A DNA stretch of 17,574 bases from contig CAYYQL010000043.1 in the NCBI GenBank assembly GCA_964473825.1, positions 2,840 to 20,413 on the forward strand, written 5' to 3'. How positions within the stretch are numbered: the first letter of the stretch is position 1; the number at the start of each line of letters is the position of its first letter. Positions 7,731-10,581 of the stretch are shown piece after piece. Source of the DNA: an uncultured archaeon. Its GTDB lineage: Archaea > Asgardarchaeota > Thorarchaeia > Thorarchaeales > Thorarchaeaceae. A program made the translations under genes and the position numbers. The notes under the pieces were generated by a model. The model was not told the DNA's origin. It worked only from the letters and a program-made list of their open reading frames with translations, and did no database searches.

Positions 7731-7755
7731 CCGGAGCGTTATCAGCTCGGTTACT
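7726..7755. terminator. Hairpin between convergent genes, overlapping both stop codons
   Basis: AGTAGCC-G-GAGC-gttatca-GCTC-GGTTACT forms an 11-bp stem with one G-U pair, a 1-nt bulge and a 7-nt loop. Confidence 0.45.
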
Positions 7756-8515
7756 ACTCCTCCGCTCTGATGAAATGAGAGAGCGGCAGTGTTGTACCAA
7801 AATCTCGCCGCTTTGCTCTGGAGGTTTGCCTGATTGGATATTGGGGGTGCTTGGTGAGTATGTACTTGAAGTAGGACTTGCTCTCTGTCACATTGACATG
7901 AATCTGTGCACAGCTGGAGAGAGTCTTACCTCCTGCTGGAAACTTGGAGTTTCTCGATGAGGCTGGGGCTGTCACTATGGTGAATAGATTGTGACTCAGA
8001 GTGAAGGTCATCAGCTTGCTTGCCATGTGAGAGATCTGCTGCATTGCATCTCCTGATAGTCCTTCAGAGATGTAGAGATCTGGAAGTCCGGAAACAATGA
8101 GTAATCTTGCTGGAATGCGGTCTAAGAAATTCTCTAGTTGGTTCATTACGAGGTCATAGGTCTGTGACGAGTTGAATGCTCTAGAGATATAGATATGATC
8201 CATGACCTCTTCGGGTTTCAGCTCGACATCGAATGCAAAGTCTGCGATTTTCTCCATTTTGATTATGTTTGCACTGTCGATCATGACCGTTGGGCTGTCC
8301 ATTCCTCCTGACTCCTTGGATAGCTGTACATTGACTGCGGCGCGGATAATATCACTATGAAGCGAACGGTCGCCATAGAAGAGATGCATCAATCCCTTCT
8401 CCAATCCGCCGCCTAGTAGGGTGTCTATCGCTTTTGTACCCGTACTGACCTGTTCTCTCTTCATTTGGTCGGCTGTGGCGAATCCCAGTCTTAGGTCTGA
8501 TTTCAGCTTCTTCAT
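7754..8515 (-). CDS. RadA/Rad51-family paralog, predicted ATPase-inactive, lacking N-terminal HhH domain
   Basis: RadA hallmarks are GFATA, STGTKAIDTLLGGGLE, VQLSKESGG, hIDS, IYISRAFNS and PAGGKTL. Walker A reads YGDRSLHSD (no GKT) and Walker B reads LLIVSG (no Asp). Confidence 0.88.
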   Translation of the reverse strand: MKKLKSDLRLGFATADQMKREQVSTGTKAIDTLLGGGLEKGLMHLFYGDRSLHSDIIRAAVNVQLSKESGGMDSPTVMIDSANIIKMEKIADFAFDVELKPEEVMDHIYISRAFNSSQTYDLVMNQLENFLDRIPARLLIVSGLPDLYISEGLSGDAMQQISHMASKLMTFTLSHNLFTIVTAPASSRNSKFPAGGKTLSSCAQIHVNVTESKSYFKYILTKHPQYPIRQTSRAKRRDFGTTLPLSHFIRAEE

Positions 8516-9375: not shown

Positions 9376-10509
9376 TCATTTTCTACGCAACAACTCTCGC
9401 CGCATGGAGAGGGCTGCATCATAGAGGACTTCTGGTGGAGTGAGTACGTAGAGCAGGTTTCTAGAATAGCCAGACTCGAACACGATACTCTGAAAGATGA
9501 GCGTCTGCAGACTCTTCTCGATGTCATCGCGCGCATGCTTGATTCCCAGTTCTTCACACTTGATGAGTATCAGCTCGTTCAAGGTCTTTCGGTCGATATA
9601 GGTTTCAGTCTTGTATCTCATCAGATGCTCGGTCATTGCCTCAAGTACGAGTAGCGTCATGAAGTCATTCATCGCTACGGTTTCAACAATCTCCATGTAG
9701 TCTTGGTCGAGCCCAAATGTAGTTATGTTAGAGGTTGCTGATCTTACCATATCAGAATCAATCTCTTGTCCTCGTGAGGCAAGCGGCCAGAGGGCCTTCA
9801 ATGCCTCGATTGAGGTCTTGGGTTTTGAAGCATCAAACTCGCAGACCAGATCAGTGATGTAGCGGATCACCTCATCTGTCAGACCGAGCGGGAATGTGTC
9901 TTCTACTCGCATCCGAACAATCTCGTAGAGCTGACTCTGTGTGTACGTATCTAGAGGAATCTCAAAGTCATATGCCATGTCGGTGGCCGGTTTCTTTGTT
10001 AGGAGTCGATAGTCATGACTGTTGAGTACACCAATGGTGGACGCACGAATTTCCTTTGACAACCTGGCAAGTTTGAGATAGACATCTTCGTTTGTTTCGT
10101 CGATGTTATCAATCACAAAGACTGTCTTCTTGGCATCTGCAGCAGTGCGCTTGAATTGCATCCACAACACATCAAGATCAAAAGCCACAGTGATTGGTCT
10201 GTTGGTCTCTCTGTGAATCTTGTCATTCAGTTCTGCAACTATCTCAAGGAGGTCTTTCCGCTTTGCATCCACATATACAGTATGCGCATCGAATCTATCT
10301 GGAATGAGTGTTGTGAGAAAATAGCGAGAGAATACTGTCATGCCAACACCGGATATTCCGTGTACAAGACAATTGACTCCATAGTCTTCTTCGTAAGAGT
10401 CGGAGTATACGCCCGCTATGCTGTCCAGCTCCCTGTTTCTATGGAGTAGCTTTTCGGGCACATAGTATGGATCAAAAAGCCCCTTTGGACTACGATGCGG
10501 TCTTACCAT
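9376..10509 (-). CDS. Orc1/Cdc6-family AAA+ / winged-helix protein, divergent, predicted ATPase-inactive
   Basis: Family motifs FDPYYVPEKLLHRNREL, NCLVHGISGVGMT (Walker A position), FVIDNID (Walker B position) and YTQSQLYEIVRMRVEDTF, plus a C-terminal helical domain of wHTH size; 377 aa. Confidence 0.85.
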   Translation of the reverse strand: MVRPHRSPKGLFDPYYVPEKLLHRNRELDSIAGVYSDSYEEDYGVNCLVHGISGVGMTVFSRYFLTTLIPDRFDAHTVYVDAKRKDLLEIVAELNDKIHRETNRPITVAFDLDVLWMQFKRTAADAKKTVFVIDNIDETNEDVYLKLARLSKEIRASTIGVLNSHDYRLLTKKPATDMAYDFEIPLDTYTQSQLYEIVRMRVEDTFPLGLTDEVIRYITDLVCEFDASKPKTSIEALKALWPLASRGQEIDSDMVRSATSNITTFGLDQDYMEIVETVAMNDFMTLLVLEAMTEHLMRYKTETYIDRKTLNELILIKCEELGIKHARDDIEKSLQTLIFQSIVFESGYSRNLLYVLTPPEVLYDAALSMRRELLRRK

Positions 10510-10537: not shown

Positions 10538-10544
10538 TATATAA
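10538..10544 (-). promoter_or_regulatory. TATA box of cdc6-like gene (near-leaderless transcript predicted)
   Basis: TTATATA on the minus strand ends 29 nt upstream of ATG 10509. Confidence 0.55.
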
Positions 10545-10581
10545 GCACCACAGGGGGTTGACCGAAAGTATTCGCCCGTTT

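Follow-up and report, generated by a model that had tools for sequence, protein, structure and literature searches.

Orc1/Cdc6 paralogues are, to our knowledge, the only initiators known in archaea. What can such a paralogue do once its catalytic residues have been replaced? The question is raised by a gene in a 17,574-nt stretch of DNA (the window) from an uncultured archaeon, in which the open reading frame (ORF) at 9376-10509 on the minus strand encodes a 377-aa protein, here called X; its clade is called family X. A preliminary description of the window had taken X for an Orc1/Cdc6 paralogue with an eroded ATPase site, had proposed a link to the subunits Orc2-5 of the eukaryotic origin recognition complex (ORC), and had considered X relevant to the origin of that complex if the host is Asgard. 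The host is indeed an Asgard archaeon, its assembly (3.27 Mb, 96% complete) belonging to the Thorarchaeota. Our analysis placed X in a well-separated and apparently undescribed Asgard clade of dead Orc1/Cdc6 paralogues, which adds a third, catalytically dead class to the initiator and Orc1-2 classes. We give about an even chance to the reading that X is a regulator or adaptor which binds proteins, has no catalytic activity and is itself under Orc1-2-type control.

Motifs, fold and conservation of X

The genome that carries X also carries two canonical Orc1/Cdc6 genes, which matched the Orc1/Cdc6 subfamily model TIGR02928 at 414 and 293 bits and both retain GKT, DE(V/L)D, GDAR and a basic wing. 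X matched the same model over its full length, with a score under the cut-off of 181.3 bits (Table 1), and scored 37-53 bits with equivalog models whose cut-offs are 311-501. Among Pfam models only the generic AAA_22 passed its cut-off, AAA_16 remaining below, and the Pfam search of X gave no match to Cdc6_lid or Cdc6_C (PF09079).

The motif changes named in the preliminary description were all recovered. In the translation, the Walker A lysine is replaced by methionine and the Walker B DE by DN. Alignment to Orc1-1 of S. solfataricus (2qby_A) and ORC1 of A. pernix (2v1u_A) placed SKPK at the sensor-2 GDAR; the stretch of X aligned to their DPRVKSSL box has no arginine, and no arginine-finger box of the DPRxxSxL type was seen. 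The wing lacks the usual GRxGR, reading FESGYSRNLLY in X and KGRYGRTKK in the genome's own Orc1-1, and the recognition helix is ARDDIEKSLQTL in X versus TQRRVSDLISEL in that Orc1-1. The mean net charge of the winged-helix (WH) domain was -4.0 in the Thorarchaeia branch of family X (the Thor clade), -2.7 in the whole family and +3.3 in canonical proteins, and the whole protein had an isoelectric point of 5.2, where the two canonical paralogues had values of 7.8 and 8.6. With the basic residues of recognition helix and wing lost and the WH domain acidic, origin-type DNA binding by X would be unlikely.

These states are not peculiar to one genome. A word-indexed search gave 112 close homologues with 63-97% identity, the named ones nearly all from Thorarchaeota. 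In the 108 Thor-clade cluster representatives that cover the site, the position of the Walker A lysine was occupied by M (86), R (14), N (4), A (2) or S (2) and never by K. SKPK-like sequences predominated at the sensor-2 site of the Thor-clade homologues, and the ATPase site of archaeal initiators (GK[TS], DE, sensor-2 Arg and Arg finger) was lacking across the clade as in X. Other features of the protein were kept: the Thor clade shows no variation at sensor-1 Asn163, at the first Walker B Asp or at W116 and F110-D111 of a helical insert, and the C-terminal pattern PP..L..(A/S)...(R)RELxRRK is conserved there.

The structure of X was modelled with AlphaFold2 (AF2). A shallow alignment of Thor sequences only gave a predicted local distance difference test (pLDDT) score of 62, and the model from a deeper alignment was used instead (predicted template modelling score, pTM, 0.87). 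It shows the three-domain Orc1/Cdc6 fold: an AAA+ base, into which two helices are inserted after strand 2, then a lid and a WH domain, with one additional helix at the C-terminus. Among solved structures, Cdc6 of P. aerophilum matched best (1fnn_A; root mean square deviation 3.7 A over 352 residues); the remaining archaeal Orc1/Cdc6 structures gave Z scores of about 21, eukaryotic Orc1 18-20, Orc4 17-18, Cdc6 about 17 and Orc5 about 15.6. A profile of family X ranked solved structures similarly, with 96 bits for 2qby_A, 87 for 1fnn, 69 for 2v1u, 54 for human Cdc6, 45 for Orc1 and 33 for Orc5. The assignment of X to the Orc1/Cdc6 paralogues was borne out by both searches, which put archaeal Orc1/Cdc6 nearest.

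Because the methionine codon ATG is one base apart from the lysine codon AAG, the locus could in principle be an artefact or a decaying gene: position 10340 might be misassembled, or the gene might be a pseudogene or have come in as the initiator of a mobile element. The preliminary description had recommended a check of position 10340, and for this we used the assembled contigs of public runs. Contigs from three runs (at least two samples, one microbial-mat study), with depths of about 59x, 69x and 9x, covered the ORF and were identical to it, with zero differences; the contig of a fourth run covers 10061-10439. As the description had said, the ORF is full length, with a 377-aa translation free of internal stops. 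More than 100 orthologues lack the lysine, the gene is single-copy, the subclades of family X track the genome families, and the gene order around X is kept between genera of Thorarchaeaceae. Nonsynonymous divergence (dN) is also far below the saturated synonymous divergence (dS). With identical assemblies, Lys-less orthologues, low dN and conserved synteny all against it, the artefact or decay explanation is refuted, and we give it practically no credence.

The strength of selection was estimated in nine Thorarchaeaceae genera. Mean amino-acid identity was 85% for Orc1-1, 73% for X and 70% for Orc1-2; the rate of X thus does not exceed that of Orc1-2, a genuine paralogue. Its synonymous sites were saturated (proportion of synonymous differences, pS, about 0.8) at a dN of 0.21. 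Taken with the identities, these values indicate that purifying selection on X is as strong as on a live initiator paralogue. X is hence a maintained pseudo-ATPase and not a decaying one, which makes a structural or regulatory role, as the preliminary description had proposed, the sensible reading.

Table 1. Coordinates of the features described in the text. Positions without a prefix are those of the window; L, G and C numbers are our handles for loci, genomes and contigs.
Feature	Position	Strand	Remarks
Catalytically degenerate Orc1/Cdc6 paralogue gene, 377 aa	9376..10509	-	Open frame; TIGR02928, 70.8 bits; AF2 pLDDT 90.9; 1fnn_A, Z 29.2
N-terminal motif LFDPYYVPE, residues 11-19	10453..10479	-	Hallmark of family X; (L/I)FDPxYxP in Thor, Loki-type and other members
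Degenerate Walker A GISGVGMT, residues 51-58	10336..10359	-	Met57 is ATG at 10341-10339
Helical insert like the initiator-specific motif, residues 84-126	10132..10260	-	Model helices 87-102 and 112-125 after strand 76-81
Degenerate Walker B FVIDNID, residues 131-137	10099..10119	-	DN in 102/108 and DG in 6/108 Thor-clade representatives
SKPK replacing sensor-2 GDAR, residues 228-231	9817..9828	-	Alignment to 2qby_A and 2v1u_A
WH domain, residues 283-358	9436..9663	-	Acidic; without the Arg pairs of recognition helix and wing
Additional C-terminal helix PPEVLYDAALSMRRELLRRK, residues 359-377	9379..9435	-	Model helix 359-376
Promoter box GAATACTTTCGG, DDRE-like	10562..10573	-	17 nt upstream of TATA box; conserved in Thor X promoters
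TATA box TTATATA	10538..10544	-	28 nt before ATG (sequence); (T/C)TTATATA kept in orthologous promoters
RadA-like gene (Rad51 Pfam; iRadA)	7754-8515	-
ORF of 84 aa	8563-8817	+	Two Cys pairs (CPRC...CQEC), Zn-ribbon-like; between iRadA and gcvH
Remnant of GlcD-like FAD_binding_4 gene, 155 aa	10582-11049	-
Remnant of GlcF-like CCG/4Fe-4S gene, 98 aa	11046-11342	-
Region upstream of orc1-1 (G000:C30)	L001:1300-1450
Region upstream of Orc1-2-class gene (G000:C2)	L002:1146-1400
DUF763 gene (L221, L225)	G000:C44:3349-4479	-
Roadblock/LC7 genes paired divergently with the X gene	L041:9415-10122, L042:6903-7580, L044:9256-9951, L046:9182-9766, L048:5844-7106
Endonuclease dU and JAB/MPN genes flanking the X gene	L044:7354-7938, L044:10035-10727

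Family X among archaeal and eukaryotic Orc1/Cdc6 proteins

Of 1.8 billion representative proteins, only 431 were matched at E<=0.001 in a profile search. In a maximum-likelihood tree of 93 proteins (unrooted), family X occupied one side of a branch with a support of 100 in the Shimodaira-Hasegawa-like approximate likelihood ratio test (SH-aLRT), separate from the two canonical classes, to each of which one gene of the window's genome belongs. Against the Thor paralogues, the family X profile scored 70-88 bits with Orc1-2-class proteins and slightly lower, 62-69 bits, with Orc1-1. The best matches of the profile search after the Thor proteins share traits of family X that are absent from canonical proteins: the N-terminal (L/I)FDPxYxP, a C-terminal S..YF..PP..L, a wing without GRxGR and no Arg-finger box. 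The Walker B Glu was gone in 40 of 42 classified members (DN, DS, DD, NN, QN and others), and the sensor-2 site reads xxRPxxxI, with a nearly invariant Pro (Pro230 in X). About half of the wider family, including many non-Thor members, retained GxxGxGK[TS]; other non-Thor P-loops read GKN, GKK, GKG, GKH, GKA or GRT.

No Pfam or NCBIfam model is specific to family X, and no published description of it was found in the literature searched. Its members go under the database names 'orc1/cdc6 family', 'AAA family ATPase' and 'hypothetical', and the Atlas clusters nearest to a homologue of X are generic Orc1/Cdc6 clusters. The named matches carried the labels Thorarchaeota, Lokiarchaeota/Lokiarchaeia, Ca. 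Harpocratesius, Hermodarchaeota and Promethearchaeota.

The distribution was scanned with a clean family X profile in 332 Asgard genomes at least 80% complete, their families being coded f1, f2 and so on. Members scored 262-413 bits and the canonical paralogues of the same genomes at most 100 bits. Family X was present in 10 of 30 coded families, nearly always as a single copy: in 61/70 genomes of the window's own family, Thorarchaeaceae (f1), 1/1 of its sister family in the same order (f2), 106/118 of the Loki-type f9, 11/11 of f24, 13/14 of f12, 5/6 of f19, 3/3 of f30, 2/4 of f15, 1/1 of f6 and 1/2 of f32. With this profile it was not found in the 20 other families, among them f5, taken as the family of Ca. 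Heimdallarchaeum (0/27), f3, which we take to be Odinarchaeum-like (0/4), f13 (0/3) and f4, with one record labelled Hodarchaeota (0/2). Family X is thus near-universal and single-copy in Thorarchaeia, Loki-type and several other Asgard lineages, and is conserved like a live paralogue. The closed 4.4- and 6.0-Mb genomes of f24 possibly belong to Ca. Prometheoarchaeum and Ca. Lokiarchaeum, both of which are in culture; if this identification is right, ideas on X are directly testable there.

From the distribution of motif states we infer that family X shed both hydrolysis and its arginine finger at the root, and that the P-loop was eroded later several times, completely in Thorarchaeia. With the Walker B Glu missing almost throughout the clade and the sensor-2 Arg and Arg finger lost, no member should be able to hydrolyse ATP or to stimulate hydrolysis by a neighbour. 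In the Thorarchaeia branch (and a few others) the P-loop Lys is replaced too, and the Thor protein probably does not bind nucleotide. X might even so be a nucleotide-dependent switch that binds ATP or ADP in a non-canonical way without hydrolysing it, since GxxGxGK[TS] persists in so much of the wider family, Asn163 and the first Walker B Asp do not vary in the Thor clade, and Arg stands at the Lys position in 14/108 Thor-clade proteins. However, that position varies freely (M/R/N/A/S) although per-column conservation in the rest of the protein is 79%; such variation is unexpected for a ligand contact, and sensor-2 is absent. We consider a switch of this kind very unlikely. The preliminary description had treated orthologues with GKT, together with ATP hydrolysis by the protein, as evidence that would tell against its account: the 108 Thor-clade representatives include none, but many members outside the Thor clade do keep GK[TS].

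Several known proteins offer a comparison. Relative to archaeal Orc1/Cdc6 (TIGR02928; 1fnn, 2qby_A, 2v1u), X shares the fold and the N-terminal YxP motif but lacks the Walker A Lys, Walker B Glu, sensor-2 Arg, Arg finger and wing GRxGR, scores under the family cut-off, has an acidic WH domain and has no origin recognition box (ORB) repeats alongside its gene. Orc2, Orc3, non-hydrolysing Orc4 and Orc5 are, like X, Orc1/Cdc6-derived AAA+ plus WH proteins that have lost catalytic residues; by sequence and by fold they rank below archaeal Orc1/Cdc6 and eukaryotic Orc1 as relatives of X, and no derived motifs common to X and eukaryotic ORC subunits were seen. Orc4 provides an arginine finger, whereas X has none. 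The delta-prime subunit of the clamp loader is an inactivated ATPase paralogue kept as a partner. Archaeal PolB2, with iRadA, likewise represents inactivated replication or repair paralogues kept as partners (PMC8764526). The logic is the same as in X, a dead enzyme copy held under selection for a structural or regulatory task, in different protein families.

X could also be a non-catalytic subunit of a heteromeric ORC, with the place next to Orc1-1 and/or Orc1-2 at the origin that Orc2-5 have next to Orc1. Its complete Orc1/Cdc6 fold includes the initiator-type helical insert, its strong conservation combined with catalytic loss parallels Orc2 and Orc3, and it is near-universal and single-copy in the lineages that have it. 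These points are countered by the lack of any special affinity of X to Orc2-5 in sequence or fold, by the failure of the family profile to find it in the 27 genomes of f5, taken to represent the archaeal lineage closest to eukaryotes, where ancestral subunits would be expected, by its inability to give a neighbour an arginine finger and by its acidic WH domain. Such a subunit is unlikely, and the link to ORC2-5 in the preliminary description was not supported: archaeal Orc1/Cdc6 is nearest by profile and fold, and family X forms a clade of its own that was not found in f5. The likeness to ORC2-5 is better seen as an analogy, a parallel loss of catalysis, and not as demonstrated ancestry, and X does not look like a forerunner of eukaryotic ORC subunits. 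A non-catalytic initiator paralogue would then have been made in Asgard archaea independently of eukaryotic Orc2-5, which tempers claims of ORC forerunners.

The promoter box and the role of X

The TATA box that the preliminary description had assigned to X is present, and a second element lies next to it. In 34/34 of the Thor genomes examined, the pattern TA[CG]TTTC[GA][GC], mostly GAATACTTTCGG, preceded the TATA box by about 15 nt; these genomes differ in the flanks of the box and even in the gene upstream. In 8/9 genera the Orc1-2-class gene was likewise preceded, at a fixed position, by this box (AATACTTTCGG or ATTACTTTCGG). X promoters of other families carried the variants AATACTTTCGG (f19), AATACTTTCAG (f12), GATAGTTTCAA (f15) and TACTTTTA (Loki-type f9). 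As an 11-mer, the box had one exact copy in the genome and 42 one-mismatch copies, versus 46 for shuffled motifs; it is not a general promoter element.

A variant, A[CG]TTTCGG..CTGT.G.GCTTAT, preceded a DUF763 gene in about 17/23 Thorarchaeaceae genomes. In the window's genome this DUF763 gene has the DDRE-like box AGTACTTTCGG..CTGTTGTGCTTAT, and it is a candidate co-regulated partner of X.

The box was not present upstream of orc1-1 in the nine genera compared, where ORB-like TTCCAGTGGAAA repeats were seen instead. These repeated elements are accompanied in the nine Thor genera by a GTAATAC..CTTAT box, and the region is likely a replication origin. Although an adjacent origin with ORB repeats is common, if not universal, for archaeal initiator genes, no repeat family and nothing ORB-like was found around the X gene, whose 72-bp upstream spacer holds the promoter only. 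Both the position of the ORB repeats, next to orc1-1 and not next to X, and a promoter shared with Orc1-2 and not with Orc1-1 count further against X as an ORC subunit.

The box resembles the DNA-damage-responsive element (DDRE) of Sulfolobales. In S. islandicus the consensus of damage-induced promoters is AATAGTTTCRGWDTACTCWS (beginning AATAGTTTCRG, core ANTTTC), which Orc1-2 binds and on which induction depends (PMC6061795). The S. islandicus orc1-2 promoter itself contains a DDRE (PMC12490963), and Orc1-2 is a global regulator of the DNA damage response in Sulfolobales (PMC6061795, PMC12490963, PMC9738581). The Thor box agrees fully with the DDRE consensus at positions 1-11, and at 16/20 positions in many genomes (AATACTTTCGGACATCTCAG), and at the X gene it lies just upstream of the core promoter. 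At the level of sequence this is strong evidence that the Thor box and the Sulfolobus DDRE are a homologous cis-element, and we infer that the Thor Orc1-2-class protein binds the box and that the box responds to damage. The shared box suggests that an Orc1-2/DDRE circuit reaches from Sulfolobales to Asgard archaea.

X and Orc1-2 of Sulfolobales are both non-initiator Orc1/Cdc6 paralogues, and the Thor Orc1-2-class gene, like its counterpart in Sulfolobus, carries the box in its own promoter. Sulfolobales Orc1-2 has ATPase motifs and two DNA-binding Arg pairs in the WH domain; X has neither and is more likely a target of an Orc1-2-type regulator than its equivalent. The alternative is that X itself is a sequence-specific transcription factor on the AATACTTTCGG box, an autoregulator like Sulfolobus Orc1-2 that works without ATP. 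Of the copies of the box in the genome, the one in the X promoter is indeed the best and the most conserved, and Orc1/Cdc6 paralogues can act as transcription factors (PMC6061795). Nevertheless, the Arg pairs of WH helix and wing that S. islandicus Orc1-2 requires for DNA binding (PMC12490963) are missing from the recognition helix and wing of X. The acidity of the WH domain points the same way. Furthermore, a box with this sequence is functional in Sulfolobales, in which we know of no family X member, no search having been made outside the Asgard phylum. A transcription factor of this sort is also very unlikely.

We favour, at the even chance given above, the non-catalytic regulator or adaptor. 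Fold, N- and C-terminal motifs and the presence of the gene are under strong purifying selection, which points to a non-enzymatic protein-binding module. The Asgard-restricted X clade would have arisen from Orc1/Cdc6, giving up catalysis. In the wiring that seems most likely, an Orc1-2-class protein would bind the box and control its own gene, X and the DUF763 gene, possibly in response to DNA damage, and X in turn would affect proteins of replication or repair through binding and not through ATP turnover.

Several observations weigh against this reading. Arg occupies the Lys position in 14/108 Thor-clade proteins and GK[TS] is kept in many non-Thor members, so that part of family X may bind nucleotide. 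The strict degenerate box pattern found no further promoter and no wider regulon in this genome, which leaves the resemblance to Sulfolobus as the ground for proposing a damage response. A conserved box is also missing from the promoter of iRadA, a neighbour with a plausible role in DNA damage. Finally, the Thor Orc1-2-class protein, whose name is a class label and does not establish orthology with Sulfolobus Orc1-2, lacks the two Arg pairs that S. islandicus Orc1-2 uses.

A more specific version of the regulator reading can be put forward as speculation. The Orc1-2/DDRE circuit might be older than the split between TACK and Asgard archaea, and its best-conserved target in Thor and Loki lineages might be a damage-inducible 'anti-initiator', a dead Orc1/Cdc6 decoy that keeps surfaces for MCM or the live initiators, binds neither ATP nor origin DNA, and blocks or re-routes helicase loading during repair. 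We regard this as distinctly unlikely.

Two elements were observed upstream of the Orc1-2-class gene. The first is a 95-nt tRNA match (Rfam; missed by ARAGORN), long for a tRNA and possibly intron-bearing. Next comes a stretch of roughly 80 nt, conserved in nine genera, with the arrangement GGCGAG-TGATGA...ATGACCCC...GATGAT...GATCTTGAGT...GAGCTCGCC; it had no Rfam match and may be a C/D-box-like small RNA.

Neighbouring genes

The order iRadA - gcvH - X - glcD-like - glcF-like - M28 - malic enzyme - nitroreductase is conserved in Thorarchaeaceae. The sister family keeps the malic enzyme gene alone beside X, and other lineages share none of these neighbours. Being confined to Thorarchaeaceae, the order is better explained as inherited synteny than as a functional module. 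A module of two pseudo-ATPases (iRadA and X) plus the Zn-ribbon-like protein was considered and dropped, as the order iRadA-gcvH-X, and with it the adjacency of iRadA to X, is limited to this family. The GlcD-like and GlcF-like genes are remnants in the window; they are full length (445 and 368 aa, respectively) at the same place in other Thorarchaeaceae, about 1.6 kb having been lost here.

In four non-Thor families the gene paired divergently with that of X encodes a Roadblock/LC7 domain, a Pro-rich linker and the C-terminal peptide DEKxAIxEAL(R/K)ALG. Its pairing with X could reflect a partner protein or a shared promoter region. A full-length counterpart with Roadblock/LC7 domain and linker was not found in the window's genome, which has bare Roadblock domains only. 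In f12 and f15, the genes flanking that of X encode an endonuclease dU (PF01949) and a JAB/MPN protein.

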